A stretch of DNA of 23,060 nucleotides from a virus (lineage: Duplodnaviria > Heunggongvirae > Uroviricota > Caudoviricetes), in the IMG/VR virus record IMGVR_UViG_2690316115_000020, positions 1 to 23,060 of that record; one strand, 5' to 3'. Positions within the stretch are counted from its first letter, which is position 1, and every line of letters starts with the position of its first letter. Positions 1 through 19,189 of this stretch are shown piece after piece. A program made the translations under genes and the position numbers. Under the pieces are notes generated by a model. It was not told where the DNA came from. It worked only from the letters and a program-made list of their open reading frames with translations, and did no database searches.

Positions 1-1158
1 ATGCTCACCGTTAAGCAGATTGAAGCAGCAAAGCCGAAAGAAAAACCATACCGCCTTCTCGATGGTAATGGCCTGTACCTTTATGTCCCTGTGTCAGGGA
101 AAAAGGTATGGCAGCTTCGCTACAAGATTGACGGTAAGGAGAAAATACTGACCGTCGGAAAATATCCGCTTATGACTTTGCAAGAGGCAAGGGATAAAGC
201 ATGGGCTGCGAGGAAAGACATCTCGGTCGGCATCGATCCGGTAAAGGCGAAAAAGGCTTCGTCTAACAACAATTCCTTTAGTGCGATTTACAAGGAATGG
301 TACGAGCACAAGAAGCAAGTCTGGTCAGTAGGCTATGCAACTGAACTTGCCAAAATGTTTGACGACGACATTTTACCTATCATTGGCGGCCTTGAAATTC
401 AGGATATTGAGCCGATGCAACTGCTGGAAGTAATCCGCAGGTTTGAAGATCGCGGTGCAATGGAGCGAGCAAACAAAGCACGCAGAAGATGCGGCGAGGT
501 TTTCCGTTACGCTATTGTCACCGGAAGGGCTAAATATAACCCGGCACCTGACCTTGCTGACGCCATGAAGGGATACCGCAAGAAGAACTTCCCGTTTCTT
601 CCTGCAGACCAGATCCCGGCATTCAACAAAGCACTGGCAACATTTTCAGGAAGTATCGTATCGCTCATTGCCACCAAGGTTTTACGCTACACAGCCCTAA
701 GAACGAAAGAGCTTCGTTCCATGCAATGGAAGAACGTCGATTTTGAAAACAGGATTATCACCATCGACGCCAGTGTGATGAAGGGACGCAAAATTCATGT
801 GGTTCCTATGTCAGACCAGGTGGTTGAACTTCTCACTACGCTAAGCTCAATCACTAAACCAGTATCAGAGTTTGTTTTTGCCGGGCGCAACGATAAGAAG
901 AAGCCAATCTGCGAGAACGCGGTATTGCTTGTGATCAAACAAATCGGCTATGAGGGTCTGGAAAGCGGTCACGGATTCAGGCATGAATTCAGCACGATTA
1001 TGAACGAGCACGAATGGCCTGCTGATGCTATTGAAGTGCAACTGGCACATGCCAACGGCGGATCTGTGCGCGGAATTTACAACCATGCTCAGTATCTCGA
1101 TAAGCGCAGGGAGATGATGCAGTGGTGGGCGGACTGGATTGATGAAAAGCCGGAGTGA
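1..1158 (+). CDS. int: Phage integrase, tyrosine recombinase of the P4/IntS type
   Basis: 385-aa ORF beginning at window position 1 (MLTVKQIEAAKPKEKPYRLLDGNGLYLYV...), typical N-terminal arm-binding region of P4-family integrases. Catalytic-domain signature residues are present in order (..LRTKELRS.., ..HGFRHEF.., ..RGIYNHAQY). From memory it closely resembles E. coli CPS-53 IntS-type integrases. Confidence 0.9.
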   Translation: MLTVKQIEAAKPKEKPYRLLDGNGLYLYVPVSGKKVWQLRYKIDGKEKILTVGKYPLMTLQEARDKAWAARKDISVGIDPVKAKKASSNNNSFSAIYKEWYEHKKQVWSVGYATELAKMFDDDILPIIGGLEIQDIEPMQLLEVIRRFEDRGAMERANKARRRCGEVFRYAIVTGRAKYNPAPDLADAMKGYRKKNFPFLPADQIPAFNKALATFSGSIVSLIATKVLRYTALRTKELRSMQWKNVDFENRIITIDASVMKGRKIHVVPMSDQVVELLTTLSSITKPVSEFVFAGRNDKKKPICENAVLLVIKQIGYEGLESGHGFRHEFSTIMNEHEWPADAIEVQLAHANGGSVRGIYNHAQYLDKRREMMQWWADWIDEKPE

Positions 1159-1375
1159 TCCACCTTAACCACTATCGAAGAGCACAAAGCCTTGCAATCC
1201 AGTACAAAACTTTGTTTGTCTCATCAACCATAGCAAGTCATCGATCGATTGAGGCCTGGATGATAGACTTCATGCCTTTGATTATTAGCTGATAGAAGAA
1301 ATGTTAAAGCTATTTGCAATAGTACACCTCGATTGGTGTTATCAACACGCTAAAATGTTCTGAGATTAAGTCAAG

Positions 1376-2803
1376 ATGGAGTTAATTATGTTCAGAAATC
1401 AATATGCTATATCAGACGCTTCACTAAGTGGTAACATCAGTCCTGACATGGAATGGCACAGGATGAGCATATACCTAGGAGAGGGAGCAGAGGTTTTCGC
1501 TAATGACAATTGCATTATCATAGGTAAAGTCGTCAATAGCTGCGACCCTAGCATGTCCCCTAATGATATAGCAGACGCTGTATCATCATGCGACAGCATT
1601 GAAAGTGTTTTTGAACTGACTGATGGGATGGCAGGAAGATACATAATCGCTTTCATCATAAACTCAGAGGTATATATGCTGACTGATGCTTGCGGATTCA
1701 AAAGAGCTCTATTTATGAGGTATAATGGTGCAAAAATAATAACATCATCTGAAAATTACGCCGCTCACATATTTGGGTTTAACATTGTCATTAATGAAGA
1801 TATAAAAGATATGATGCGGGATGAATCCTACAGAAGAAAAGAAAGCCCATGGTTTGGTTTGACTTCTCCAGATGAAAGATTCAGTTATTTAATACCAAAT
1901 CACTACCTGTATATAGGTGATTTTTCGTTACATCGCATGCCCCCGCCAAAAATTGGTGGTGATGTAATTACCAGCGCATCATCAATGATAAAGAATACAA
2001 TTTTAGCACTTTCTGAAAGGTATAAGTTGATACAGCCTATAACGGCTGGCATTGACAGTAGGATTCTTCTTGCAGCATCTGAATCAGTTAAAGATAAAAT
2101 CGATTATTATGTATTTGGAGACGAAAACTCAAACCACGAAGACGTGTCCGTTCCTAAAGAGCTAGCAAAGATAGTTGGCGTAAATTTTAATGCAATCACC
2201 CCTCCGTCAGCACCAGATGAGTTCAAAAAGGAAATCGAAATGACAGTTCTTGGTGGTAGGGACTTGCCAAAAATAGATAATATATACTATCACTATAAAA
2301 ATTCTAACTTTGAAAAAGTAAACATCAATGGTAATGGCGCAGAGATATTCAGGTCGTATTATGGCGTGTCGATATTAGAGTTTAGCGCCAAGTCACTCTC
2401 TATACTTTCTGGAACTAAAAAATGGCCCATCATGGAAAGAAAGATTTATGATTGGCTAACCTTAACTGAAGCCAAAAGATTTTCTCAAGAGAACAATATA
2501 TCAATTACCGACCTTTTCTATTGGGAGCAAAGAATGGCAATATGGGGGTCTATGTTCCCTTTAGAGCAAGATATCGCAATGGATGAGGTGTCGCCATTCA
2601 GTAATAGAAAGCTAATTTTCACAATGCTGAGCGAATCTTCAAGCAAACGTAGATCACCAGACTTTAAATCGGCAACTTTGTTAATTAATTTTATGGATGA
2701 CAGATTAAATAAAGTGCCTGTAAATCCAAAATCATCAAACCATATTATAAACTTTATAAAGGCCCATACAATAACTCAGTTAATTGTTAAGAAAATAATC
2801 TAA
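1376..2803 (+). CDS. AT-rich cargo (moron) gene; soluble AsnB-family-like protein (class-II amidotransferase-like N-domain plus degenerate PP-loop synthetase domain), function unknown
   Basis: 475-aa ORF, visibly lower GC than flanking phage genes, with many AGA/AGG/ATA codons. The likely true start is the ATG at 1388 (GGAG 6 nt upstream, giving MFRNQ...). Motifs by eye, in AsnB order and spacing: GMAGRYIIAFIINSEVYMLTDACGFKRALFMRY..GAKIITSSE (res 84-126, cf. AsnB [37 protein letters not shown]); LIQPITAGIDSRILLAAS (res 218-234, PP-loop-like, cf. LLSGGLDSS); KELAKIVGVNFNAI (cf. QEVANHLGTVHHEI); NGNGAEIFRSYYG (res 318-330, cf. SGEGSDEVFGGY). No hydrophobic transmembrane segments are evident. 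Confidence that it is a real gene is high; the family assignment is moderate and not search-verified. Confidence 0.7.
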   Translation: MELIMFRNQYAISDASLSGNISPDMEWHRMSIYLGEGAEVFANDNCIIIGKVVNSCDPSMSPNDIADAVSSCDSIESVFELTDGMAGRYIIAFIINSEVYMLTDACGFKRALFMRYNGAKIITSSENYAAHIFGFNIVINEDIKDMMRDESYRRKESPWFGLTSPDERFSYLIPNHYLYIGDFSLHRMPPPKIGGDVITSASSMIKNTILALSERYKLIQPITAGIDSRILLAASESVKDKIDYYVFGDENSNHEDVSVPKELAKIVGVNFNAITPPSAPDEFKKEIEMTVLGGRDLPKIDNIYYHYKNSNFEKVNINGNGAEIFRSYYGVSILEFSAKSLSILSGTKKWPIMERKIYDWLTLTEAKRFSQENNISITDLFYWEQRMAIWGSMFPLEQDIAMDEVSPFSNRKLIFTMLSESSSKRRSPDFKSATLLINFMDDRLNKVPVNPKSSNHIINFIKAHTITQLIVKKII

Positions 2804-2814
2804 ATTTTAAATTT

Positions 2815-2847
2815 ATCAATATCGGGGAATGCAAACCCGATATTGAT
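2815..2847. terminator. Bidirectional intrinsic-terminator-like hairpin between the convergent cargo gene and tailspike gene
   Basis: Perfect 12-bp inverted repeat ATCAATATCGGG (2815-2826) / CCCGATATTGAT (2836-2847) with a 9-nt loop GAATGCAAA. It lies 12 nt after the cargo stop and 25 nt after the tailspike stop, with T/A-rich flanks on both sides. Confidence 0.6.
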
Positions 2848-2871
2848 TTAGATTGCGTTATTGATATGCAT

Positions 2872-5403
2872 TTAAATTATTGATAGCGTTCTGATTTCAT
2901 TTCCGGCCGGTGATGTCATAACTATCTGTGTTACGTTAGCGCCGGACACCGTATACGTCAGAATTATGTTACCAGCGGTTCCTATATTAAAGTTTTGTTT
3001 AGCACCTGATGAACCTATAGCTTTGGCATTCGTTAAAGTATACGTATTACCTGAGGTAAATCCTGTAGAAATTACAAATTGTTGCCCAACTTTAAAAGGA
3101 ACTGTCATTGTTACGGATGTTGACTCGACAGTGATAAACGGCAGGCTATGCTGTTTAACTCCCGTCACATCCCAGAACTCACAATTACGCACCAATGCTC
3201 GACCAATTAAACCGCGAGTTACAGGGAATGTTGTCTGGTCCTGTGATAAGAATGCTCCAACAATTTGCACGTTATCGAGCGTAATATCGTGTACTGTGGC
3301 CCCATCTATAGGACTTAACGTTGGTGATGCACTCCATAATTTACCACCCTTCATTTTGATACTCACAGGACCATTTGGGTCTCCACCATAATATGCACGG
3401 ATACGCTCAAATTTACAATCTGTGAGTTCATAGCTGCCGCGTTGATTGGTTTCGAACATTGTGTAAGCCTCGCCAGGCACGCCATGTCTAACATTGCTGG
3501 CAACAACACGGGGGTTATGTCGGAACGATGCCGACGTAACAGAGAAAACCGGCGCGCAGACATCATTGATGAGAATGTCCGTGGTATAACGCCCTGTAAC
3601 AGCGTTCTCAGAGTTACTCATATCCGAATATAGCGCTTTAAAGCGGGAGAAGTCTATGTTAAGCCCAACCCCTGCGCTTTTCGGGAGGGAGCCAAAATCA
3701 AGCCCGTCAATAACAATTTTCTTCGGAAAGTAAAGAACATTGTCGCGGCTAACTGTGATCAAAGTTCCTGGGTAAGTCACTGCGACGCCGGGGTACATTT
3801 TAATATCTTTCAGGGTGATATTATTAAATAGCGTAGGGCTTATAGGCGATCCGCTACTAGGCCCCTGCCCAGCAGTGACGGAGGCATTGATAATGCCGTT
3901 ACCCGGAACGTCGTTGCGCAAACCAGTTAGCTTTATATTCTCCATGTATAAATCACCATCGAAGAATCCCCCAGCGTCAGGGCGAGTCGCAATAATATTA
4001 CCAGGCTTATATGGTGAAGCGTTAAATGTTGAATTGGTTACGTACAAATCTCCGATACCAGAAGCGAGGACACCATAAACCCCAATATTACAGTCATTTA
4101 TCTTTAAGTAGTTTTGGAAGGGCCTGTGGAAATCAATTCGACTAAGATCACATCTTTCAAACCTTATATTGGCGCAATTATTGCTGCCTGTCGCCCCCCA
4201 ACCTTGACCATTTGCCGTTGCGTTTTTGATAGTAACATTCATCGATTCGCCTAGCCCGATGGCGTATGCGTAGCTATCAACACCATCTATTAAGGCGTTT
4301 GCTATGGCTGGCGTGTATAAACCATCCACTATAACATCATAGCTGTCGTGAATTTCTAACCGGGTATCATTAAAGTTTTGCGTTATCGGTCTGTTAATAA
4401 ATGACGTATTAATCAGACGAACTCTTGTTGCCTGATTAATAAAAATAATGCGATACCTTGTAGTAAGGCTCTCATCTATAGTCAACCCCTTAATGGTCTG
4501 CACATCTTTGCGAATTTTAAGTGCTTTAATAGATGTTGCGTTAGTTCCCAGGGCGTACTTAAGCGGGTTTTCAATGTATCCACGGTTATATACCCTGTTG
4601 AAATCTACGCGAGTTTGATTAACGCCATCGAAAATAAACATCGGTTGAGATGTTGATAACTGAATGAAGCAGCCGTCAAGGTCGGTGTTAGAAGCCAAAC
4701 CGTCAAGATAGTTGCTGCCTATTCCGCGAGAGTTACGAGTGGACGCATTAACACCATTAACCGGGGCCGAACCTGCCTCATAGGTTACAGGAGCGTCAGG
4801 CTGGCTAATAACAATCTGACCTGTCCACGTAGCGGATGGCTTGAGGACAGAACCAGTTAAATCCACATTTAAACTTTTAATATCAAGATAAGTATCACCA
4901 TCTAGTAGAAAAGTTCCGTCAGATTGCCTAACGTCTAAATTATTTGAATAAGCATAGTTCAGTGCCTTAGCTATGGCGGGAGCGTCATTTGTTACTCCAT
5001 CACCAATAGCGCCAAACTCCTTCAACGTTACCCAGTATTTTACTTTCTCCAAGCTCTTTTGATACTGATCCGGGTCGTACTTCAGCACATTAGGAAAATA
5101 GAACTGCTGTGATCCATATGCATCATAAACAGCCATAGAGTGGCCTTGCACAGTTACGAACTTGGCAATCTGTCCGTTATATACCGGATATCCGGCGGCG
5201 TTAATGATGATTGGTTGCGAAACAGGAACGTGAGAACCGTCTTCGTTCTCTACATAAACCGGAATCTGGTTTTCAGGATTTACCGGGTCAGTGTCAATTT
5301 TACCGATATAAATTTTGCCATTGGCAACCGCTTTAAAAGAACGCGCCATAGTGAAGAGTTGCGAAGGCATACTCACTACAACATTGGCTGTAATGTCTGT
5401 CAT
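2872..5403 (-). CDS. Tailspike protein: P22-type head-binding N-terminal domain fused to a long, divergent beta-helix-like receptor-binding/depolymerase domain
   Basis: 843-aa ORF. The N-terminal ~115 aa ([59 protein letters not shown]...[10 protein letters not shown]) matches the P22 gp9 head-binding domain as I recall it. The remainder is unrelated to P22 gp9 and carries a pectate-lyase-like motif [20 protein letters not shown] near its start. GGAG Shine-Dalgarno 8 nt upstream of the ATG. Confidence 0.9.
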
Positions 5404-5461: not shown

Positions 5462-5485
5462 AAAAAAACCCAGCCGAAGCTGGGT
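5462..5485 (-). terminator. Rho-independent terminator between ejection-protein gene (gp16) and tailspike gene
   Basis: On the minus strand: ACCCAGC-TTCG-GCTGGGT hairpin (7-bp GC-rich stem, 4-nt loop; plus coordinates 5468-5485) followed immediately by a run of 6-7 T (plus-strand A-run 5462-5467). Confidence 0.65.
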
Positions 5486-5535
5486 CGTTGCGTTGGTTAT
5501 CTGTAAGTAGTTATGTGCTTAGTTAATTATTTATT

Positions 5536-7380
5536 CTATTGTTCTGCTGTAATTTGGCTTGCAAGTATAGGGCGTATCGCATTTGCAGCATTATTTAGCG
5601 CTCTTTCATAGGCTGGTGTTCCAAGCTTAGTGTTTGCCAAACGAAGAAGCATATTCCTTGCGGCTTTGGACTCATACAAACGCATCATTGCACCGAAACC
5701 AGCCTCAAGCCCCATTGATACGCCAAGAGTCGCAGTTGCGCCAATCGTCCTTATCCTGTTGGCTTGCGATTGCCCCGTCTGAGTTACTACATTTGCGGTG
5801 TCTGACCTTGCTGTTTGCTGTAGAACTTCATGAAGAGCATCAAGCTCTTTCATGTGCTTTCCAGAAAAAATAGTGTTGTAAATTTCACCACCCGACTGAG
5901 ATTTCAGCTTATTAACTTCAGTGATGAACCTGGCTGGAGAGTCACCGGCCTTTTCCGCTATTTTGCTGACGTAAGCTGCACGCATAGCATCTTTCCCTTT
6001 ATCATCCAATGCGCTCCAGATTCGTTTCACGTCAGATGGTTTTCTGCTTAATACAACGGTATTTATAAGTTCAGGACTGGCTTCACTGCTTGCCTGGTTG
6101 AGCTTGTTAGCAATGTTTTTATTAAGCACCTTATTATAAACATTTGCATAATCGGAATTTGCTTTAAGGTATTTTGCTGCGTCTGATGCACCGAGGTTTT
6201 TTGCAACTGCGTTACGAAGGTCTTTTGACATTGCATTCTCTACCATATTGGTAGCTGCTTTTGCCTGGTTGGGGAAGACCATAGCATCTCCCTGAACATT
6301 AGATCTAAATGCTGTTCTGTGCTGACGCAAGAGATCAAACGTAACATCCAAATCAGTTGCAGGGTTTGCTAATTCTTCACGTAGGTTACGCAAGGATGTA
6401 AGCAGGCTTTGATTGGCAGACGTCCCGAGCCGTTCCTGTCTTGCGATCGCTGTATTCAGAGCATTCATGGTATTTGTGGTATCAACTGCGGCATTACCCA
6501 TTTTATTGGTGACGTCATTGATAACAGCGCCAGCAGCATCCTTCCGTTCCCTTAACGTGGTGGTCAGAGATTTCACCACATCATCCGGGTTGTACTCACC
6601 AAAACGCTCAAAATAATTACTTACCAACTTACTCCGCGTTGCATATTGCTCTGCCCTTTTACTGCCAGTTCCAAGAATGGCCCCCTCAGCATCCTGAGTA
6701 AGACCACGAGTGAAAGCATTTTTCGGCGGGATAACATCAGATGTCATTGGTGTCACGCCCATCGATTCTGATGTGGCAATTTTCTTCGCCACTTCTGGCG
6801 CAATATCACCTTTTATAGCCGTTATTCCACGCCCTATTCCCTTTGCTGCTGCGGAAAGAACCCCCTGAGCGGCAAGGTTAACTCCGGCATTTTTGGCTGC
6901 ATTTTGTGCGAAATCGCCTTTCTGATTTGCGGCCTCTGCCAGTGATCCAATAGCCATGCTTCCTGCCATTCCAACTCCTGGAACTAAATACCCGCCAATT
7001 GTTTCTCCAGCTTGCGCATAAGGGTCTGTCGGTCGATAGACTGGACGATAGACATCATCCAAAACCTTGGGACCACCAAGCCCCTGACTGATTGCATTAA
7101 TCAGGCTTGCACCACCCTGTAACACGTCAAATGGTATGTTTACCAGACCACGACCAGCCTGTTCTGCAATTTGCCCTGCACTTTGACCACCAGTGAGCCA
7201 ATCGCCAGCTTGTTGCATCAATGATGGTTCTTCCCGTGTTGGTGCATTATTGGCCTGATTAACTGTTTGTTGCTGAACAGCCTGACCAGCAAAATACTCA
7301 TCAATGGCGGTGCCAATATCTTCGGTGCTCGTACTATCAGGAAAGGTAAATGTCTTACCGTTTGCAGTTACTTTCATCAT
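5536..7380 (-). CDS. Ejection (injection) protein, P22 gp16 homolog
   Basis: 614 aa; N-terminus [33 protein letters not shown] matches P22 gp16 as recalled. Size (P22 gp16 about 609 aa) and position (last ejection gene before the tailspike) fit. Confidence 0.85.
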
Positions 7381-8789
7381 TCCACCGTAAATTGAATGCC
7401 TGATTTTGAGGTATATGATCCAACCTGATTCCGTGGTTCTCCTGAAGGTGTCGAATCTTGTGCTGGCGCTGCGTCAGTATTCAATGACATATACCGCTTA
7501 ACGGCACTCCCCAATGATTCACCTTTTTTAACATCCAACCCCAATATCTGACCGCCATTACGCGATTGTCCAGGGTTGCCATTCGCGCTCATCCACTCGG
7601 CTTTAAACTCATTAAACTGCGCGTTTCGTCGCTCAAGGTTTGCCATTGCATCAAGCCATCTTGCGACCGTCTCAGGGTTATCCATGTCAGTTGGCGCGCC
7701 CTGTCGAACGATCTCAACGTCTTTATCCGTTGCGGGGCCTGGAGGTAGGAATTTAAGAACCTGACTGTTAACAAGGGCATTTTGGCGGATGCGCAAATCA
7801 CGCAATGTTGTATCGCTTCCGGTAAGTTTTGCGAACATGTTCTGTGCGTTACCGAACAAACCTGTCGTTGGTTTTTCTGCTCTGAACTGTTGAGCAAGCG
7901 CACTCATAGAATTGGCTGAGTTTGATGATGCTGTAGCATTGTTTACAGCCGTCTCGATGCCTTTTTCCATGTTTACTGACAGCTTAGGTGCTTCGCTAAT
8001 CAACTGCTGAGCCTTTTCCTGCGCTTGCTGCATCTTAAACCCGAACTCTTGCTGATCCAGAGCCAAGCGTTGTGCTGCGATATTGTGCCCAGTCATTGCT
8101 GACTGATAGGAAAGGTTTTGCCCTCTCGCCTGAAGTGCTTCTCCAGCCTGATTGCTGCGGATTGTCTCTGCCAGCCTGCCTCGGTCAATTTCACGACCAG
8201 CCATCTTGTCCTGAACATTGAAGTAATCAATCGGACCAAGAGCAGCCATTCCAAGGTGATCAACAAACTCACCAAATCCTGAAGGGTTCTGCTGATACAT
8301 CTGAGCAACGCTGTTAGGGTCAACACCGACGCGCGCCAGCTCATTGGCGTTGTTTTGCAGCCATGATTGCATTGCTTCTGGAGACGAGGCCGCAAGGCGT
8401 GCGCCAGCCGCTAAGGTGCCGATAGAATTGCGCTGGTCTTCGTCTGCCCACTTCATACCAGACTGAATCTTCTCTAATTGACCAGGATATTTGGTCATCA
8501 GATCTCGCACCTGCTGCCGATCACCTGACTGGATGGCTGCCGCATATTCTTTTTGGAATGCAGCATCCGCTTCCTGTTGCTTTGCGGCTTGATATGTTTG
8601 AGCGACACTACCAAGCCCCTGCAACGCCTGAAGGCCGATGTTATTGCGACCTGAGCGCTCCATTTCGTTGTTCTGGCGAATATAGGCCAACGCCTCACTT
8701 ACATCACTTGCCTTTGGCGCATTTGAGTTTTGCCCACCGATACCAGCAAGAAAACCGCCTGAGTTGATTCCTTGTTGCCAAGTAGCCAT
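7377..8789 (-). CDS. Ejection protein, P22 gp20 homolog
   Basis: 470 aa (P22 gp20 about 471 aa). Sits between the gp7-like and gp16-like genes. Stop overlaps the gp16 start by 4 nt, suggesting translational coupling. Confidence 0.8.
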
Positions 8790-8798
8790 ATTCCCACC

Positions 8799-9479
8799 TT
8801 AAAACAATGATCCAAGACCACCGATAATGCCGCCACCAATAGCGCCAACAGCCGTACCTATTCCTGGCACCACAGAGCCAATCATCGCCCCTGATGCCGC
8901 ACCGCTCATGGCACCTCCCAAGGCTGATTGCAGTCCTGATGGTCGGTTAGCATTAGCCGCAGATGCTGCCGCCTGCTGTTGATACAATTGGCTGACGTTG
9001 TTAGCGTAGTTCTGCCCGGCGTTTGCCTGACCTGTAAGAGCACCAAGGCCAATGTTTGCCAGATTGTTGTAGTTGTTCATCTGACCTGACAGCCAGTTTT
9101 GACCGAGTGTAGGTGCGATTGCTGCTAACTGGTTTCCTGTTGCTGTAGAGCCTAATCCACCCGTTGCCTCTGCTGCTGCCAGACTCTGATAGCGCGCCTG
9201 CCCTGCAAGGTCTTTATACTGCTGAGAGTTGTAATACTGGTTAAGAGCCTGACCTTGCCCCTGAAGAGAAGAAAGATTTTGCAACTGTGATACGTACTGC
9301 TGAGCGAGTGGCGTGAACGGTGCAAGGTTCTGCATGTTCGTTTGCCACATTTCACGCTGCAGTTCGATGCCCTTTTCAGTTGCGCGTGCCTGGGCTTTTG
9401 CTCCGCTATCACTGCCACCTCCACCTTTGCAGTACACAGCTTTGCTGAGGTGCTTATTGGCAATCTGGAAAATTAACAT
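8799..9479 (-). CDS. Ejection protein, P22 gp7 homolog
   Basis: 226 aa (P22 gp7 about 229 aa), Gly/Ala/Gln-rich low-complexity protein, in the conserved position between the gp14-like gene and gp20. The N-terminus overlaps the upstream gene by 26 nt, so the start may be slightly different. Confidence 0.7.
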   Translation of the reverse strand: MLIFQIANKHLSKAVYCKGGGGSDSGAKAQARATEKGIELQREMWQTNMQNLAPFTPLAQQYVSQLQNLSSLQGQGQALNQYYNSQQYKDLAGQARYQSLAAAEATGGLGSTATGNQLAAIAPTLGQNWLSGQMNNYNNLANIGLGALTGQANAGQNYANNVSQLYQQQAAASAANANRPSGLQSALGGAMSGAASGAMIGSVVPGIGTAVGAIGGGIIGGLGSLF

Positions 9480-9936
9480 TCTTTAGCTCCTCGTATTTTG
9501 AGCGCGGTAACTGATAAATCGTGATGCCTACAGGCTTTCCATTGCTGGTATAAGCATCATCAAGGTGACCAACACGGGTAGCGCCAAGCAAACGGATAAT
9601 TGCCCGTCCGTATTTCGTTGTGTCAGGAACCATGGTAATGCTGTTAAGGAATGGTGAGTTTTCGAGAAGCCATTTGCAGAATAATCGATGCCCTTGCAGT
9701 GCATATTCGCCACGGAATCCGGGGTCATACACCGCATGGCATTCCACAACGCTATGCCAGAAGTTACGCACTTCATGAACGCCAGCCAGCACTAATCCTT
9801 CGTAGATGCCGAGGTATACCGCATCAGGCTTGATGTAGTATTTATCTCCACTGTCTACAATATTTCCCGTGTTTGCCGGGTTGTTAAGGAATTCTGCAAG
9901 CTTCACCGGGTTATCGATGAGCTTTATTTCCATCAC
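9454..9936 (-). CDS. P22 gp14-like protein (assigned by position between tail needle and gp7)
   Basis: 160-aa ORF in the slot occupied by gene 14 in P22-like late operons. Start overlaps the tail-needle stop by 4 nt. No motif recognised by eye. Confidence 0.5.
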
Positions 9937-10781
9937 TGCTCCGCAATGATTTTGATTGTTGTGGCAGTAAACGCCGCACCATTTGACTGAATGGTTAACG
10001 TACTGCCATTTGTGGCAAGAAAGCCGTCTTTATCCACGCTGAAGAACGTAGCTAACAGGATGTTATCGGTTGTTGTCGCCGAGTTACGACTGCTTACCAG
10101 CGTGTCAGGGACAGAGCCGGAAAAGGTTAGTTGCATTGACCTGTTGGCGGTTCCGCTGGGCCACGTACCGACGATCGACAGCTTGAAGAACAAGGTTTTG
10201 TTCTCGTTGAACACAACCATCTTGTTGTTAACGGTGTCGAAGAATGGTGCCAACGTGCCGGATGACGGCGTGAGCGTTTTCAGCAGGCTAACAAGATTGG
10301 TCGGCGCTGTCGGGATGGTTACAGATACGCCAGAGTAAACAACCTCTGACTTCTTGCGAGTAGTGGCATACTCCAGAGCATCGATGCGCGTTTCATGGTC
10401 TGAAAGCGTGTTTTGAATGGCGACAACTTCATCAGTCAGATACTCAATATCGTTTTCTGCTGTCGTTAATCGTGAATCAAGGCCGACTATCGCCGCTTCT
10501 GCGTTAGTGATCCTTGTTTCGTGGTCCTGAATCTTCGCTTCAGCCGATGCCAGTCGAATTTCGTGATCGACCAGAATCACATCCTGCTCATCGTTCCTGA
10601 CTTGTGCGTCATAAGCGCCCTGTCCGGCCTCGTTGGCCTTGTTCGCCACATTACCAACATCAGTACCCTGTGCGATAACGTACAGCAGATATGACTGCGA
10701 GAAGATATTACGCGGAAGGACTGATGTATCGAGCCGCGTAGCCTGAATGATTACCGGCTCATTGAGATTCGAATCAGCCAT
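9933..10781 (-). CDS. Tail needle (P22 gp26 homolog) with extended C-terminal domain
   Basis: 282 aa. N-terminus [67 protein letters not shown] matches the P22 gp26 N-terminus as recalled. It is followed by heptad coiled-coil repeats ([29 protein letters not shown]...HETRIDALE) and then ~130 aa of non-coiled-coil sequence. P22 gp26 is about 233 aa; Sf6-type needles with a C-terminal knob are about 282 aa. Confidence 0.9.
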
Positions 10782-12199
10782 TACTCAATCCTTATCTGAC
10801 AGCCAGACAGAGTGACAGGTGACTTCGTGATAACGCGCAATTTGAAGCCGACATTTTTCCTGATGCGCCCAACTCGCTTCCACAAAACGCGTTTGTCGTA
10901 AACGAACGGTTCATTCTGCTCAATCATCTGCTCACGACCATAATTGATGCCGTCAGTGGTTGCAGAGAGGAACAGGCGGTCGGCGTACTGCGCAACTCCA
11001 GTTGACGATTCAACTTCAAGGTCGAAAACTCTGGCGTTATCCGCTTTGAACAACGGAGTAAACAGCAGGTGTTCCTGTTGCTTGTCGTACTGGCTGCTGA
11101 TATCGAACTGCAATTTTCCTGTCATCGATTCAAGCTTATCGCCGCACGTTATCTGATTGCCTTCGTAAATGAAGTCGATAGCGCGGTACACATCGTCATA
11201 CAGGCCTGTTTTCAGCACACACCATTGCGGACCATTGGCACTTGAAGATGCGTCGTACACGAGAACATGGCGCGGAAGGTGGATAATCAGCAACTCATGC
11301 GCATCAAATCGCAACGATTCCATCACGCCATCAGCCAGTTCATCAGCAGTGTAGGAGCGGAGGATTTTCTCAATGCTCGCGCTGGCGATTGGTGACACCT
11401 GACCGGAGCCGATGATGTACACAGACGGCGCACCCGTTGCCGGGTTGCTGATGAACGCATAGGAATCAGCAAACGGCGTTTTGCAGTAAGTCCCGGCAAT
11501 GCCTTTCTGCACCATCAGCGATGGTTGTGCAACATACAAAGCGGCACCAACGGTGGTTGCCCCAGTCAGGGAAAAATATTCAATCGTCGATGAACCAAAG
11601 CAGACGATGAAGTCTCGCCATGTTCCGATTCCGATGATGCCGTCAGGCTGCGACTCGGCACGATATTGTGCGCTGTAACGGTCAGGATGCGATTCGTCTT
11701 CAAGGTCAGTGATGAACCATGAATCAGTTCCGTCTTTTGACCACGCATAACGGCCACGTAAGCGTGTAATGTCGCGAACCGAACCTAACTCATACTGCGT
11801 GAATCCGCTGTCTGTAGGCCAGTTTGAGACGGTTTTAACCGTGCCATCATAGCGATACTCAACCAGTTGACCATTAACGCCTACAGCCTGAGATGTTCGA
11901 CCATGCGCCATTGATACGCGACCACTTCCGGCGACGTCACCGACTTCGCTTTCGCCTTTGTAGAGCTTGCCGCCACACACACGATAGACAGCATTCTGCG
12001 CCATGTTGTACTCGACGCCGCGCGATACACCGTTCACATCAGAGCGTTTGGCAATGCCCGGGAATGAGCGAAGATATCCGCTGCTGTTCAGGATTTCTTT
12101 GGGGGTTGCCAACATATTCACTGGCAGATAGTCGATATAGTCGGCGTTTCGAAAGTCTTTGCCGACACCTTTCATAAGCGGAAGTTGCTGAATCGGCAT
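10781..12199 (-). CDS. Tail hub / head-completion protein, P22 gp10 homolog
   Basis: 472 aa (same length as P22 gp10); [49 protein letters not shown]... matches the P22 gp10 N-terminus from memory. Confidence 0.9.
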
Positions 12200-12208
12200 T
12201 TATTCACC

Positions 12209-12670
12209 TCACGTACTCGGATCATCTTTCTCGATGTAAAACCGATTCCACGTAAACGCGCTTTTGTTACCACTACCGCGAGGCATGTCATTTCTCCGCT
12301 CAAGTGGTGGTATTTTGGTTAAAGCGATACAGATTGTCTGATATGCACTGTCAGCAGCGGTAAGGAGAGCGTCTGACGGCTGAATGACGTTATCCATGCA
12401 CACTTGCACAGCGAGTTTCAAAGCGACGCCATCATTTGCCCATGCAGGGATACCTGAATCATCGTCAGGTAACGGCATGATGCCGTTTTCTGTATCAGCA
12501 AACTGATATCCAAGCTCGATACCTTTAGCCTGCCATGCTGCCATCATGTCTTCGAGGTCATTAATGGCATCTTCAATTGCCTGAGGGTCAGCATCTGTCA
12601 ACGTGGCATTGGAATACAGCCCGGCTTTTCGTAAAGCCTTAAGAACGAGATCACCCTTCGTTTTCGCCAT
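12209..12670 (-). CDS. Tail adaptor / head-completion protein, P22 gp4 homolog
   Basis: 153 aa; MAKTKGDLVLKALRKAGLYSNATLTDADPQAIEDAINDLEDMMAAW matches the recalled P22 gp4 pattern (TKGDLV..ALRK.G..S.ATLTD..PQ...DA..DLE.MMA.W). Confidence 0.85.
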   Translation of the reverse strand: MAKTKGDLVLKALRKAGLYSNATLTDADPQAIEDAINDLEDMMAAWQAKGIELGYQFADTENGIMPLPDDDSGIPAWANDGVALKLAVQVCMDNVIQPSDALLTAADSAYQTICIALTKIPPLERRNDMPRGSGNKSAFTWNRFYIEKDDPST

Positions 12671-12839
12671 CTTCTTCCGCCTTAGCCACTTTATGCTTCG
12701 TTGCGGTTTCTTCAGGAGTTTTTACCCAGCCTTTTTTCAGGTGAGATTTAACTTCTTCGTCATCAACAATGATGTAATCGACAGCAAACTGACCACAGGT
12801 GATCATGTTGCCAGGCTTATAGAGCATTGTTCGTGCCAT
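12651..12839 (-). CDS. Small hypothetical protein (62 aa) between coat and gp4-like genes
   Basis: ATG at 12839-12837 preceded by GGGAGAAG (minus strand), giving MARTMLYKPGNMITCGQFAVDYIIVDDEEVK...EEDGENEG. The 74-aa version in the ORF track starts at a GTG inside the upstream terminator hairpin and is probably an over-extension. The 3' end overlaps the gp4-like start by 20 nt. Confidence 0.55.
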   Translation of the reverse strand: MARTMLYKPGNMITCGQFAVDYIIVDDEEVKSHLKKGWVKTPEETATKHKVAKAEEDGENEG

Positions 12840-12850
12840 TGTCTTCTCCC

Positions 12851-12875
12851 AATAAAAATGGGGCCGTAGCCCCAC
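12851..12875 (-). terminator. Rho-independent terminator immediately downstream of the coat gene
   Basis: Minus strand, 4 nt after the coat stop: GGGGC-TACG-GCCCC hairpin (extendable by a T-A and a G-U pair; plus coordinates 12860-12873) followed by TTTTTATT, then the RBS of the next small ORF. Confidence 0.6.
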
Positions 12876-12880
12876 CTAAA

Positions 12881-14134
12881 TTACTGCCCGGCAATAACGA
12901 TGCCCGTATATTCAGGAACAAGTACAGAGCAACCGTACAGAGTGGTGAAACGAGCAGTGGTTACGCCTTTGATGTGGTCGAAGGCGTAAGACATGATCAG
13001 CGTAGCGCCCTGCTCGGTGGTTGCTGTCATTACCTGTGGCCCCTGACCAGTCGGGAATGCCAGTTTGCCGTACATCAGTTCAACAGAACCATCAGCCCAG
13101 AACAGGTTAGCCGGTGCTGCGTTCTTGTTGAGAATGGTGATTGCTGCTGATTCTGCCGGTTTGGCATCGACGTTTGCATATGGACGACTCGCAACATCAG
13201 TATTTTCAACAGGGAGAATCTTTGGAGAAATTGTTACGGTAGTTCCGCTAACAGCCAGAACACGGAATACCTGCGGTTGACCGGTGGTATCTTTTGTGAT
13301 CTGGTGTACGGAATTCACACCGGCAATGGTGAACGCATCACCAACCTGCAAGCCAGATGCAGATACCGTAATAGTCCCCTGTCGGTTATCAACTGGCATA
13401 CCATTTGAATCTTTCGCTTCAACCTTGTGTTCAGGTTGGCCTGATACTGTCAAGGATTCAGTGCTTCCTTTCGGTAATCGACCAGAAATATCGGTCTTGT
13501 AGCTATCAAAGGAAGCAACCTGAGGGATCTGCGCTTTTTCGTATGCTGTCAGGGTTGCGCCCTGAGCATAGGCACGGTGACCAAGCTCGCCAGCAAGGTC
13601 TTTGTAGTTGAAGGGGTTCCAGAAAGAGCGACGGTTGATACCCTGCGGTACACCTATCGCCGTCATGGTGGCATCAATACCTGCCGCACAGTTCCACAAA
13701 TCACGGCCCTGTGTACCTGTGGTTGAGTCAGCCATCGTGATCACGTTAGTAGCACGCTGCGTGACCATGGAAATCAGGTCAGAGTCAATCTGTGCAGCAA
13801 GGCGCATACCTGCGGCTCGACCAGCCTCAGTTTTATGTTCCGGGTCACGCATTTCACGCGCATCCAGAGTGTACAGAATGTTTTTCGGCTCCTTGAACAC
13901 AGAAGGAACAAGGCGCTGAACCAGTGCGGTAGGCGTTTTGCTGCTGAGATCGAGGCCTTCCTCAATGTTCATGTGGTAATGCTGCGGGCGATACAGAACA
14001 TCACCTGCTCGCTGCATTGCTGTATCACCGGGACGGAATTTTTTAGCGTTACGGGAAACTACGCAGGCGGCCTCAAAGCCTTCAACGTAGTTTTCGAACA
14101 TGATTTCAAGGTCTTTTGCTAATTGGTTAGCCAT
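12881..14134 (-). CDS. Major capsid (coat) protein, P22 gp5 / Sf6-type
   Basis: 417 aa (P22 coat about 430 aa). Position after scaffold and before gp4 fits. Scattered motif agreement with recalled P22 coat (AKKFRPGDTAMQR ~ AKKYTPPAASMQR; FWADGS ~ FWADDA). Confidence 0.85.
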   Translation of the reverse strand: MANQLAKDLEIMFENYVEGFEAACVVSRNAKKFRPGDTAMQRAGDVLYRPQHYHMNIEEGLDLSSKTPTALVQRLVPSVFKEPKNILYTLDAREMRDPEHKTEAGRAAGMRLAAQIDSDLISMVTQRATNVITMADSTTGTQGRDLWNCAAGIDATMTAIGVPQGINRRSFWNPFNYKDLAGELGHRAYAQGATLTAYEKAQIPQVASFDSYKTDISGRLPKGSTESLTVSGQPEHKVEAKDSNGMPVDNRQGTITVSASGLQVGDAFTIAGVNSVHQITKDTTGQPQVFRVLAVSGTTVTISPKILPVENTDVASRPYANVDAKPAESAAITILNKNAAPANLFWADGSVELMYGKLAFPTGQGPQVMTATTEQGATLIMSYAFDHIKGVTTARFTTLYGCSVLVPEYTGIVIAGQ

Positions 14135-14152
14135 GCTTAATGCTCCGATAGG

Positions 14153-15046
14153 TTATTTTTTTGCCTTTTTAGCGGCGAAATACGGCGTCCAGTCACCAGT
14201 TTCCAGCACCTTGGCTTTCAATTTGTCGAGGTTGTTGATTACTGCGCCGTTGCTCCCCTTAACTGTCGGGGTTGTGGCTGCCGTGGTTTTTGCTTTTGGC
14301 ATGATTCTGGCCTTCGATTCGATACGTTCCAGCAGACGACCAATTGCTACGGGGTTGGTAGCTTCTGCCAGTTGCTTGCGCAGTTCAGCGTTGCGACCGA
14401 GTGCCAGAACAACGATTTCCGGCTTCTCTGACTCAAACAGGATCGCGTTTTGTGTCTCGATGGGAATTTCCTCGAGTACGGCCTGCTCAGCTTCCTGATA
14501 GCCAGGAACTTTGAGAGCCTTAACACGTTGCTGATATTTGGATAATCGCTCTTGATAGGCAGCCTGAAGCTCCTGCTCCTTCTGCTTGCGAGCCATCTCC
14601 TGTTGCTGGTACTTTCCGTTATCCTCTGCCCACTTAGCCATGCGTTGCTGATAGATTTCTTCATCGAAACCGATGTCCTCATCATCCAGTTTTGGCATTC
14701 GCGGTGGTTGAGTGATTACCGGCTGCTGCTCGACGGGTTTCTGAGACTGACGCATCAGCTCTTTCAGCTCGCGGTCTTTCTCTTTAATCGTCTTGCGCAG
14801 GTGTTTTACCAGTCCATGCTCTGCGCTATCTTCGCTGGTTGGCGAATCCAGCTTTTCGTCACCAAAGTAGAATTCCTGTTCTGATTCGTCGTCATCAGTT
14901 TCAGTAGCTTCCTCTGCATCATTGCCGGAGGACTCACTGCCATCTTCTGTTTCGACTTCTTCAGCCAGTTCGACATCATCAGGAATCTGCTCTGACGCGT
15001 CGGTTTCGATTTCAACTTCTGGTGTGTTTTCTGCCATCTGGTCCAT
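14153..15046 (-). CDS. Scaffolding protein, P22 gp8-like
   Basis: 297 aa (P22 gp8 about 303 aa), highly acidic N-terminus (EVEIETDASEQIPDDVELAEEVETEDGSESSGNDAEEATETDDDESEQE), helical charged middle and basic C-terminus. Lies between the portal and coat genes. Confidence 0.8.
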   Translation of the reverse strand: MDQMAENTPEVEIETDASEQIPDDVELAEEVETEDGSESSGNDAEEATETDDDESEQEFYFGDEKLDSPTSEDSAEHGLVKHLRKTIKEKDRELKELMRQSQKPVEQQPVITQPPRMPKLDDEDIGFDEEIYQQRMAKWAEDNGKYQQQEMARKQKEQELQAAYQERLSKYQQRVKALKVPGYQEAEQAVLEEIPIETQNAILFESEKPEIVVLALGRNAELRKQLAEATNPVAIGRLLERIESKARIMPKAKTTAATTPTVKGSNGAVINNLDKLKAKVLETGDWTPYFAAKKAKK

Positions 15047-15136
15047 TTGTTACCCCTGTTTACTCGATGTTCAGCCCATCGGAAGGCAATAGGGTGCCTG
15101 GCCTCATAAAGACAGCCATTGCACGTTATGGGTTAA

Positions 15137-17335
15137 TTACTGCTGTGGTTGTTGCTGAGTTGATTTTTGCAGGATGCTGCTGATGTCCATGCGCTGCGCA
15201 TGGCCCTGTGCCTGACTTTTCAGGACAAGCTCTGCATCAGCACGGGCATTGTCTCCTTGCTGTTGCTGGAACTGTCCGAGCAGTTTCAGAGCCTCGCGGA
15301 TATCAGATTTCTGCTGGCTATCGGCAGATGCGAGGATTTTCACAACGTTTGCCGCTGCAACCTGAGCATCAGTCTGTGCCTGGAATGCTTTAACCTGAAT
15401 GGCTGCCTGTTCGTTCTGCGCTTTCTGCAATTCAGCCTGACCAGCAAGAAGCTGACCTTGCGCTGCAACCATAGCCGGATCTGGCTGACTGGCCTGTTGT
15501 TGTTTCGCCTGTTCAACCATCTGCTGTTCTTCAGGCGTTCTCGGCTTGATAACTCCAGACAGAAGCAACTGATTGCGGTTGTATTCTTTCAGGTCGTCCA
15601 TCCCTTCGCCGTCCATATTGTCGAGAATCATCGACGATACAAGGTCGTGCTTCGGCGTTCCTGGTGGGATAAGTGCCAGCATGGAAAGTAACGACTTAAC
15701 CGTTGCATCACGGCGAGTAGCGAACGACTGACCGACATCGACAGTCACTTCATAGTTACCCTGCGAAAGGTCATTAAGCGCGATAACCTGCCCTGTCTGA
15801 CGGTCAACCACTTCACCAGTCATCAGCGCCACGTCATCGCTGCCGTCCTCATTAACGATACGCATCGGCGTATCACTGCCATAGACCTCACGCGCCATAG
15901 AAAGCCACACAACGCCAGCGCGACGCATGGATTTAGCCATGTTGTCCATGTAGATATAGGACTGCGTATCCATCCGGTTAAAGATGCTATCAACGGTATC
16001 GGTGGCGACGTTGCTCGGCATGTTCTCAAGCTGCGACGCACCTGTAATTTGCTGAATAGCCGTTCCGGTGTACTGCAATAGCCCGGCAAGAGCTGGAGGC
16101 ATTTGTGTCGGAGGCGTATAACTGCTGACCTGAGCCTGCGCAGTAATATCTCCGTTTTTGTTTTTCAGACTGACCATCGGCAGGAACGCCGGGCGCTTTT
16201 TGTTGCGCTCCGCCCAATGAGTGGCGAGAGGACCAGGAATCATGTCAACATCAACTACAGGAATGCCATCACCGCCAGCCTGAGTGGCGTTATCTGCAAT
16301 CATGGAAACCATCAGGTTCTCAAGACGCTGTGCATCCATCGCTTTTGCTGCGTGGCCTTCGATTCGCTCCTGATTATCAACAAATGAGCGACGCCCATAT
16401 ACCGGGATGAGAGGAATATGTTCGCCCGGAATACGCTTCGGTTCTTCCAGCCATTCAGCGCCAGACAGAAGACCGCAATAAACGCGGCGCTTCTTCACCG
16501 TTCGCTCGCCAATCAGTTCGAATGCACCATCGGTCAGCTCGTCGACAATATCTTTGATTTGATCTTCATCATAGATTGCCGTTTCTCCGCTAACAGGGTT
16601 ACGCCATGCTGTGAGCTTCACCTTCTCTATGCGAACTTCGTAGTAGCGACCAACATAGATAGCATCAGGAGTTGACCAGTCATATTGAGTGCCAGTGTCA
16701 TCACGAGAAAGGCTTGCCGCGATGGAATCAGGGTATTCAGCCTCGAACGCTTTAGGCGTCATGGAGAACATTTCCATAGCCCACATAGCATCGGAGCGGT
16801 CATATTGCTTGCTGTCCTGATCGAAGAAGACGCATATCGCTGGGTCGTAAACAGGAAGAAGGCTGATGCGTCGCTGCTCGTTACTCGGATCCATTTCATC
16901 TTCGTAATCGGCACACATGCGGAAACAACCGAATCCGCCCGTTACAGCATCATCAAATGCGTTATCACACGCTTCACCACCGGATGTTTCCTGATAGTCA
17001 GCGCGGAATTTGCCGTTCATCTTTTCGGCTAACGCTTCCGATGCCTTATCGTCCTTCGGCCTGAATTTAACGCTGATGCGATTCTGTCGATACTCGCCAA
17101 TGATGCGATCACATTCACGGGCAATCTTATTTAGTTCAAAGCGCGGGTAATGCTCAAACCTGCCTTCATCAAATGAGTAACCAGCGTTTGTGCTGCCTTC
17201 CCACTGTGCGCCGGACACCCGGACGAAACGTTGAGCCTCAATAATCTGCTCACGCATATCCTGCGTTGCTGACCAGGCATTATCAAAGTTGCACAGCACC
17301 TTGCGATGCCAGTCAGTCATCTTTTTTTCTGCCAT
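15137..17335 (-). CDS. Portal protein, P22 gp1 homolog
   Basis: 732 aa (P22 portal about 725 aa). Segments matching recalled P22 portal: GEHIPLIPVYG, PRTPEEQQ, DPAMVAAQGQLLAGQAELQKAQN, DNARADAELVLK, QRMDISSILQ, ending in a glutamine-rich C-terminal barrel-like tail. Confidence 0.9.
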   Translation of the reverse strand: MAEKKMTDWHRKVLCNFDNAWSATQDMREQIIEAQRFVRVSGAQWEGSTNAGYSFDEGRFEHYPRFELNKIARECDRIIGEYRQNRISVKFRPKDDKASEALAEKMNGKFRADYQETSGGEACDNAFDDAVTGGFGCFRMCADYEDEMDPSNEQRRISLLPVYDPAICVFFDQDSKQYDRSDAMWAMEMFSMTPKAFEAEYPDSIAASLSRDDTGTQYDWSTPDAIYVGRYYEVRIEKVKLTAWRNPVSGETAIYDEDQIKDIVDELTDGAFELIGERTVKKRRVYCGLLSGAEWLEEPKRIPGEHIPLIPVYGRRSFVDNQERIEGHAAKAMDAQRLENLMVSMIADNATQAGGDGIPVVDVDMIPGPLATHWAERNKKRPAFLPMVSLKNKNGDITAQAQVSSYTPPTQMPPALAGLLQYTGTAIQQITGASQLENMPSNVATDTVDSIFNRMDTQSYIYMDNMAKSMRRAGVVWLSMAREVYGSDTPMRIVNEDGSDDVALMTGEVVDRQTGQVIALNDLSQGNYEVTVDVGQSFATRRDATVKSLLSMLALIPPGTPKHDLVSSMILDNMDGEGMDDLKEYNRNQLLLSGVIKPRTPEEQQMVEQAKQQQASQPDPAMVAAQGQLLAGQAELQKAQNEQAAIQVKAFQAQTDAQVAAANVVKILASADSQQKSDIREALKLLGQFQQQQGDNARADAELVLKSQAQGHAQRMDISSILQKSTQQQPQQ

Positions 17336-17336
17336 A

Positions 17337-18752: not shown

Positions 18753-19189
18753 TTTCCGAATAGATTGCTCATCGGTGATGTTTCAATCTGGATTGCGCCG
18801 CCGTCTTTGCCTGTTAGCTCGTGATCAACCTTGTCGCGCCATTTATCCTTCTGTCGGTTCTTAAGCCAGAAGATGGCGGCGGTTGTATCAGGCGGGTAAT
18901 ACTTCTCAAGCGGAGTTTCGACAATTCTGTTTTCAATAACACGAATATCGATGTCTGGAGCCACGAAGCCCATAGCGCGTTGATAAAGACGGTCACTAAC
19001 TTCTGCATCAGCGACGGCCTTACCCTTTTTTATGGACTCCGAAAACTCAGGATAATCAAGCTTCCACTTGTTAATAGTTGACTCACTGACTTCGAAGAAA
19101 TCAGCAAGCTCTGCATCGGTGTAGCCCAGCAAGCACAGTTTGCGTGCCTGTTCGGCGTACGCCTCTTGATACTTTGTTGGGCGCGCCAT
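18749..19189 (-). CDS. Terminase small subunit
   Basis: 146 aa immediately upstream of and overlapping the large terminase gene; helix-turn-helix-like N-terminal region (AELADFFEVSESTINKWK). Confidence 0.75.
   Translation of the reverse strand: MARPTKYQEAYAEQARKLCLLGYTDAELADFFEVSESTINKWKLDYPEFSESIKKGKAVADAEVSDRLYQRAMGFVAPDIDIRVIENRIVETPLEKYYPPDTTAAIFWLKNRQKDKWRDKVDHELTGKDGGAIQIETSPMSNLFGK

Follow-up and report, generated by a model that had tools for sequence, protein, structure and literature searches.

Which surface polysaccharide does a P22-like temperate phage recognize, and by what chemistry, when its tailspike resembles P22 gp9 over little more than the first 115 residues? The question is raised by the tailspike gene in a stretch of viral DNA of 23,060 nucleotides (nt) (Caudoviricetes; IMG/VR record IMGVR_UViG_2690316115_000020, positions 1 to 23,060), here called the window; the features discussed are listed in Table 1. 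The answer we put forward, with moderate confidence, is that the spike combines a P22-type head-binding domain with a receptor-binding module of a polysaccharide lyase family, that the O38 O-antigen of Escherichia coli is the receptor for this clade of modules, and that the module was moved as part of a cassette. An exact-sequence look-up showed that the identical protein is already public (WP_053896236.1 / CTS46697.1), named only 'phage tailspike protein'. It is encoded on contig ERR134529_260, in a P22-like prophage of an E. coli chromosome.

Comparison of both sequence and modelled structure indicates that the receptor-binding module is a member of the K64-ORF41-type Tyr/His/Arg polysaccharide lyase family. 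When the PDB was searched by phmmer, residues 122-707 had one strong match, to chain 8x8m_A (E = 1.5e-38). The protein in 8X8M is K64-ORF41, the depolymerase with which Klebsiella phage SH-Kp 152410 degrades the K64 capsule; it is described as a lyase that acts by beta-elimination, Tyr528, His574 and Arg628 forming an intrachain site (PMC11652154). BLASTP against this enzyme gave 25.6% identity over 570 columns. The AlphaFold2 (AF2) model of the tailspike is confident at residues 121-843 (predicted local distance difference test (pLDDT) mostly > 85) and poor at the N-terminus, where the input homolog alignment is shallow. In a Foldseek search of the PDB the top match was again 8x8m_A (E = 1.4e-41), with a template modelling (TM) score of 0.75 normalised to the query and 0.81 to the target over 812 aligned columns, a predicted model being compared here with a cryo-electron microscopy structure. 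This alignment takes in the C-terminal domain (residues ~708-843), whose sequence similarity to 8x8m is not significant. Every significant Foldseek match outside the N-terminus was a beta-helix protein, the next ones (query-normalised TM ≤ 0.28) including phi297 gp61 and AP22 gp54. AP22 Gp54 has been grouped in a review with the K64 and K1 lyases (PMC11652154).

A beta-helix depolymerase-type module had been proposed in an initial annotation made from the window's letters, and structure prediction by AF2 and Foldseek bears this out. That annotation had pointed to a motif typical of pectate-lyase-fold depolymerases. The motif is present at residues 131-148, but for residues 124-187 the match to the pectate-lyase-like family PF12708 reaches 18.2 bits where the curated cut-off is 27, so that the motif alone is weak evidence and the beta-helix is backed by the structure model instead. 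Some close homologs carry a precomputed PF12708 match.

The native K64-ORF41 sequence was taken from the phage record (AUV61507.1) and aligned with the tailspike by MAFFT, which placed Tyr380, His426 and Arg474 opposite the three active-site residues. Across 23 aligned homologs, the most distant at 24% identity, only 31 columns are invariant; they include these three residues, the histidine lying within the invariant block R422-I-D-F-H426-x-P428. Equivalents of all three are likewise present in MK-13 gp103 and Rtp50. We infer lyase chemistry from this family membership. In the mechanism proposed, residues 1-115 would fix the spike to the virion tail, while residues ~122-843 would form a beta-helix depolymerase that binds a surface polysaccharide containing uronic acid. 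Cleavage of this glycan by beta-elimination through Tyr380, His426 and Arg474 would clear a path for the virion to the outer membrane.

A beta-helix spike with other chemistry (that of a glycoside hydrolase), or one that only binds its glycan, would use the Tyr/His/Arg set for substrate binding or folding, and kept catalytic residues are indeed no proof of the same chemistry. The sole characterised relative is just 25.6% identical and the pectate-lyase-like Pfam match is sub-threshold. In addition, spikes of the P22 family are named or annotated as hydrolases rather than lyases, that of P22 as an endorhamnosidase (molecule name) and that of CUS-3 as an endosialidase (annotation); the Sf6 and HK620 tailspikes are hydrolases too. 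The AF2 model is a monomer, which tells against reading trimer assembly or active-site geometry from it. We nevertheless regard a hydrolase or a pure binding protein as quite unlikely, as the three residues are invariant, within the R-I-D-F-H-x-P block, in homologs that have diverged to 24% identity, and as the whole-chain fold match to the lyase (0.75/0.81) stands against query-normalised TM scores of ≤ 0.25 for hydrolase tailspikes (0.12-0.17 for P22 gp9).

No near-identity to a characterised tailspike was found; by sequence, the nearest enzyme of known specificity is K64-ORF41. Both are tail spike proteins of podoviruses with a homologous beta-helix body, the same overall fold and the Tyr/His/Arg set. 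In contrast to the P22 head-binding domain of the window protein, K64-ORF41 has a T7 gp17-type adaptor of ~270 residues; its host genus is Klebsiella and its substrate the K64 capsule, while the activity of the window protein is predicted only. Judged from the characterised relatives found, a lyase-type module on a P22 scaffold appears to be an undescribed pairing.

Uncharacterized relatives are spread over several phage families. When 50,697 phage genomes were searched by tblastn, the module was present at full length in two Ackermannviridae, Shigella phage MK-13 and Enterobacter phage fGh-Ecl02 (57%), and in two Drexlerviridae, the E. coli phages Rtp and IME253 (49%); remoter matches (24-34%) were mostly in Klebsiella phages, K64-1 included. 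MK-13 gp103, the fGh-Ecl02 spike and Rtp50 share the full-length module and its catalytic residues with the window protein, but belong to lytic phages, have other adaptors and, in these phage records, have no linked neighbour gene of the kind described below. Rtp50 is a presumed O-antigen-binding lateral fibre, a role 'never directly demonstrated' (PMC8594841), and a literature search found no characterised specificity for MK-13 gp103 or Rtp50. PHROGs assigns the module to phrog_16586, 'tail fiber protein'. In a set of 5.8 billion proteins the nearest were E. coli prophage proteins with PF09008, at 86-92% identity and with generic names; the module was also found there behind PF18668 (Tail_spike_N) and other N-termini. 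A prophage of Enterobacter hormaechei has a module 83% identical on a PF18668 adaptor. The module is thus horizontally mobile: P22-like podoviruses, a contractile-tail-type prophage, Ackermannviridae and Drexlerviridae have exchanged it, and the adaptor in front of it differs in each case.

The candidate receptor came from the distribution of the gene in hosts. At least 80% of the tailspike gene is carried by 12 of 5,426 complete E. coli genomes, at 84.6-89.5% DNA identity. The Prokaryotic Genome Annotation Pipeline (PGAP) labels wzx and wzy of three carriers (BL12, DAM and 33F4) 'O38 family'. When the 5,426 genomes were searched for the O38 wzy, there were 13 matches, 12 of which were exactly the 12 tailspike carriers (the exception was NCTC9038), while none of the 5,413 non-O38 genomes carried at least 80% of the tailspike gene. 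The hypergeometric P is ~1e-35 with genomes taken as independent and ~1e-8 counting only three separate prophage contexts. In the 33F4 group the context is a decayed remnant that lies between mdtA and yegL and includes gtrABC; in the BL12 group it is an intact P22-like prophage at argW, also with gtrABC; and in DAM and ANT it is an insertion sequence (IS)1-truncated copy at the sbcB/dacD site. As the carriers are 12 of the 13 O38 genomes and occupy three prophage contexts, the O38 O-antigen is most likely the receptor, and on this genome survey the leading candidate, for this clade of modules.

Several observations weigh against O38. Only two wzy-allele groups are represented among the O38 carriers, so that the association rests on few independent events, and many O38 copies of the tailspike are pseudogenes. 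A lyase would need a 4-linked uronic acid, and a literature text search found no paper with the O38 repeat-unit structure. The 83% relative in E. hormaechei could mean a cross-genus glycan rather than O38. Finally, the window allele is a mosaic with ~75% DNA identity to BL12 and DAM in the catalytic core. No O38-specific phage enzyme was found in the literature search, and O38 was not covered by a 2023 tailspike-serogroup study.

If the O38 link were merely clonal, the receptor could be another uronic-acid glycan widespread in Enterobacteriaceae, such as colanic acid, enterobacterial common antigen (ECA) or a K capsule. This would suit the two wzy-allele groups and the occurrence of relatives in E. 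hormaechei (83%), in Shigella and Enterobacter phages (57%) and in Rtp (49%), which grows on laboratory E. coli. The N-terminal cap also resembles, weakly, the Phi92 colanidase gp150 and a PHROG family named 'colanic acid degradation', but over only ~45-70 residues. Loci for colanic acid and ECA are near-universal, and yet not one of the 5,413 non-O38 genomes has a copy that covers 80% or more of the gene. The three distinct integration contexts in O38 hosts, and the pairing of the same tailspike in sister prophages with gtrABC, an O-antigen-modifying module, also speak for an O-antigen, and we consider a receptor of the colanic acid, ECA or capsule type improbable.

The mosaic raises a narrower doubt, which concerns the window allele rather than the clade. 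Along the gene its identity to 33F4 is 81-96%; to BL12 and DAM it is ~75% in the segment of gene nt 900-1500, where the catalytic residues are encoded. Taken over the central 600 nt of the module, identity is ~75% to BL12 and DAM and 87-91% to 33F4, whereas the adjacent neighbour gene is 98-100% identical, a difference that indicates recombination within the module. Replacement of the substrate-binding core might thus have given this allele a specificity unlike that of the O38-associated ones; its 3' end is closest (93.9%) to a stump of the gene that O91 strains carry. Set against this, full-length DNA identity to the 33F4-type O38 copies is 89.5%, the nearest proteins in the 5.8-billion set, at 89-92%, are at identity levels that usually keep specificity, and BL12 and 33F4 are both in O38 hosts despite being equally divergent from each other. 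A changed specificity in the window allele is accordingly somewhat unlikely, and O38 remains the receptor we favour for the clade.

Two observations on the lysogens may be recorded here. Those of the BL12 lineage have a damaged O38 cluster: IS903B splits galE in BL12 (locus 22684-24781) and IS1 interrupts wzy in GS04. Such damage may reflect selection for O-antigen loss under phage pressure. Separately, most E. coli copies of the tailspike have decayed, to three open reading frames (ORFs) beside IS481, to an IS1-cut copy, or to a 550-bp stump near IS3-family fragments and a group II intron (extracted loci L001 6001-8533, L002 4263-7060 and L003 4506-5553). The neighbour gene remains intact, with 99.2-99.4% identity.

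The part of the spike that is shared with P22 was confirmed. Pfam Head_binding (PF09008) matches residues 1-113 over the full profile (E = 2.1e-66, 221.7 bits against a cut-off of 24), as the initial annotation had it; the boundary letters that it quoted are residues 105-114. Sf6 gp14 matches residues 1-118 (E = 3e-65) and P22 gp9 residues 1-139 (E = 1e-55), with scant identity past residue 115 and no detectable P22 gp9 sequence similarity beyond ~residue 139. The statements that the protein is unrelated to P22 gp9 after the swap, over a module of 720 amino acids (aa), and is much longer (843 versus 666-667 aa) also proved right, although the interval 2872..5060 given for the swapped part takes in only what follows the head-binding domain, the full gene being 2872..5403. 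By megablast, 31 P22-like phage genomes match the gene from nt 1 to 339-346 only, and > 1,100 E. coli genomes match it mostly at the 5' end alone. From this sharp end to DNA similarity, the junction is the usual exchange point of the P22 family, as had been supposed; the CUS-3 record annotates a 'boundary sequence' at its tailspike junction. Further in, protein matches to Rtp50, K64-ORF41 and MK-13 begin at residues 122-125, and a DNA match to E. hormaechei begins at window position 5019, which is residue 129. With the spikes of P22 (gp9), Sf6 (gp14), HK620 (gp9) and CUS-3 the window protein has in common a head-binding domain of 70-91% identity, its gene position, a junction at ~residue 115 and modular swapping. 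In contrast, their receptor-binding parts have no detectable sequence similarity to that of the window protein, and query-normalised TM scores are ≤ 0.25.

The receptor-binding region had also been described as AT-rich. Its GC content (0.436) is indeed below that of the late genes at 5536-19189 (0.499), but the head-binding part is equally low (0.438), and AT-richness was rejected as a marker of the swapped part. The truly AT-rich gene is the convergent neighbour (1376..2803, 0.368).

The swapped unit is larger than was at first described: it is a two-gene cassette that includes this neighbour. A contractile-tail-type prophage of E. hormaechei, its type assigned from sheath-initiator and baseplate families, gives a single continuous blastn match to window 1301..5019 at 81.7%. 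E. coli DAM matches window 1205..4919 at 91%, and a remnant in strain 2017.06.05CC matches window 1098..3421 at 97%. The gap between neighbour and tailspike is 68 nt in both the window and E. hormaechei. Module and neighbour gene occur together in E. coli DAM and ANT and in E. hormaechei, and in three O91 strains the neighbour gene is kept while the tailspike is reduced to its last 550 bp. Within the gap lies a hairpin, between convergent stop codons, which is likely, from its sequence, to be a shared terminator; a pattern scan overlooked it because the scan's loop limit was 8 nt. In a side observation, cassette copies at the dacD site in E. hormaechei (L008 12264-12653) and in E. coli (L002 10794-11180) both precede a HumD/Peptidase_S24-type gene, which suggests a related element at one chromosomal site in two genera.

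The cassette occupies a slot otherwise used for O-antigen modification. BL12 has a counterpart of window 1..1351, 94.6% identical and running from int to codon 17 of gtrA, and the cassette shared with E. hormaechei starts exactly at the gtrA remnant. In the sister prophages of BL12 and 33F4, gtrABC lies in the same slot between int and tailspike. Given this identity and the remnant (MLKLFA...), the neighbour gene has replaced gtrABC behind the gtr upstream region. Like the gtrABC modules of P22-like phages, it thus lies in that slot with the int-gtrA intergenic region and 17 gtrA codons kept upstream, but it has no homology to GtrA, GtrB or GtrC, and gtr brings about periplasmic glucosylation where cytoplasmic amide formation is predicted for the neighbour. 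In temperate phages the module travels as a 3.7-kb block with a convergent gene of asparagine-synthetase (AsnB) fold that took over the O-antigen-modification slot of gtrABC.

Evidence for that fold comes from structure. The probable start of the neighbour gene is ATG 1388, as the family consensus starts MFRNQY. Its AF2 model (pLDDT 93.3) matches over its full length carbapenam synthetase, beta-lactam synthetase, TsnB9, and human and E. coli asparagine synthetase (Foldseek, E = 1e-12 to 1e-8, TM 0.47-0.59; entries 1q15, 1m1z, 7ylz, 1ct9 and 8sue), all with a two-domain Ntn-like plus PP-loop synthetase fold. A search of a viral fold library gave only fold-level AsnB-like phage proteins. By sequence, there was no significant match in Pfam (none at E ≤ 0.1), NCBIfam, PHROGs, PADLOC or by phmmer against the PDB, all E values in a PDB profile search were 0.07 or higher, and tblastn found no homologs in the 50,697 phage genomes. 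The only sequence hint of a PP-loop was a weak match to NAD synthase (E = 0.11). The family has an invariant T223-A-G225-x-D227-S-R229 at the PP-loop position after the first strand of the C-terminal domain (the canonical motif is SGGxDS). Like the glutaminase-dead CarA and beta-lactam synthetase, it has no N-terminal Cys to serve as nucleophile in glutamine hydrolysis; it also shares with them the two-domain full-length fold (TM 0.5-0.55) and perhaps the PP-loop. It differs from them in having no significant sequence similarity and a context of polysaccharide rather than antibiotic synthesis.

That context was seen in eight non-prophage homologs (27-50% identity). Six of the eight lie inside polysaccharide-synthesis loci, and a seventh has Wzz and export genes ~6 kb away; a UDP-sugar dehydrogenase, an enzyme type that makes uronic acids, is encoded in three of the polysaccharide loci. 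The protein has no hydrophobic segment (maximum 19-residue hydropathy 1.36) and is predicted to be soluble, so that with an AsnB-type fold its modification would be cytoplasmic and amide-forming. Our best reading is that the neighbour may be an ATP-dependent amide-forming enzyme of glycan modification, captured as a conversion gene. One specific role was tried and rejected. O91 strain 2017.06.05CC keeps an intact neighbour gene and its O91 cluster shows no amide-forming gene, which prompted the idea that the enzyme makes the glycine amide on O91 glucuronic acid; only 3 of 27 O91 genomes carry the gene.

The cassette might pair a lyase tailspike with its own antidote. Here the neighbour would amidate the uronic-acid carboxylate of the glycan that the spike cleaves, a new, cytoplasmic form of serotype conversion. 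As beta-elimination needs a free carboxylate, amidation would leave the receptor of the lysogen uncleavable and exclude related phages. This idea is speculative and we rate it as unlikely; if true, the antidote cassette would represent a conversion matched to lyase spikes and mobile between podovirus-type and contractile-tail-type prophages.

The locus is of interest for its clean serogroup association, for the pairing of a predicted lyase with a P22 scaffold and for a linked orphan gene in a serotype-conversion slot. A generically annotated tailspike gains a candidate mechanism (a Tyr380, His426, Arg474 lyase) and a candidate receptor (O38), which would put a Klebsiella-type capsule-lyase module on a P22 head-binding scaffold. 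If the specificity for O38 is true, one more serogroup would enter the tailspike-specificity map, on which phage host-range prediction and diagnostic or enzymatic tools draw. The neighbour family is widespread and unannotated; if it modifies receptors, serotype-conversion genes would gain a new class and an orphan family its first functional handle.

Table 1. Positions of the tailspike, its cassette and adjoining features in the window
Feature	Positions	Strand	Basis
IntS-type tyrosine integrase	1..1158	+	NCBIfam PRK09692, E = 1e-70
Mobile cassette, 3.7 kb: gtrA' remnant, neighbour gene, hairpin and receptor-binding module	1301..5019		blastn
Frameshifted gtrA 5' remnant, first 17 codons	1301..1351	+	Translation matches GtrA N-terminus
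Neighbour gene, 471 aa from ATG 1388 (475 aa from ATG 1376)	1388..2803	+	Convergent with tailspike
Perfect 12-bp inverted repeat (2815-2826 / 2836-2847) with 9-nt loop, then TTTAGATT	2815..2847		Read from sequence
Tailspike gene, 843 aa	2872..5403	-	ORF list
C-terminal all-beta domain (predicted), residues ~708-843, plus stop codon	2872..3282	-	AF2 strands 706-842, pLDDT ~90
Predicted right-handed beta-helix catalytic body, residues ~122-707	3283..5040	-	phmmer, AF2, Foldseek
Codon for Arg474, aligned with K64-ORF41 Arg628	3982..3984	-	Alignment; invariant in 23 homologs; codon checked
Codon for His426, aligned with K64-ORF41 His574	4126..4128	-	Alignment; within invariant block; codon checked
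Codon for Tyr380, aligned with K64-ORF41 Tyr528	4264..4266	-	MAFFT; invariant in 23 homologs; codon checked
Junction/linker, residues 116-128	5020..5058	-	Between end of P22-type similarity (~residue 115) and start of shared cassette
Head-binding (virion attachment) domain, residues 1-115	5059..5403	-	Pfam PF09008; Sf6 gp14 and P22 gp9 matches
Terminator-like hairpin, 8-bp stem with 5 G-C pairs, then T-run	5467..5486	-	Pattern scan; between gp16-type gene and tailspike

On contig ERR134529_260 the P22-like prophage has the gene order portal, scaffold, coat, gp4, gp10, needle, gp7, gp20, gp16, tailspike, convergent 471-aa gene and integrase. Late genes have 94-96% DNA identity to CUS-3, Kapi1 and HK620, and the tailspike gene closes the late operon, preceded by the ejection-protein genes (gp7, gp20 and gp16) of the P22-like virion module. 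The strong terminator-like hairpin that precedes the tailspike start suggests that the gene may need read-through or a promoter of its own. Beyond the integrase the contig continues with chromosomal genes, namely a formate/nitrite-transporter-family gene (yfdC in BL12), mlaA and fadL. Integration is therefore at the yfdC/mlaA locus, which in the BL12 sister prophage is the tRNA-Arg (argW) site. The ORF at 5536..7380 (minus strand) had a sub-threshold Peptidase_M2 match in Pfam (E = 0.011) that is spurious, the precomputed annotation being the P22 gp16 ejection-protein family PF26808.

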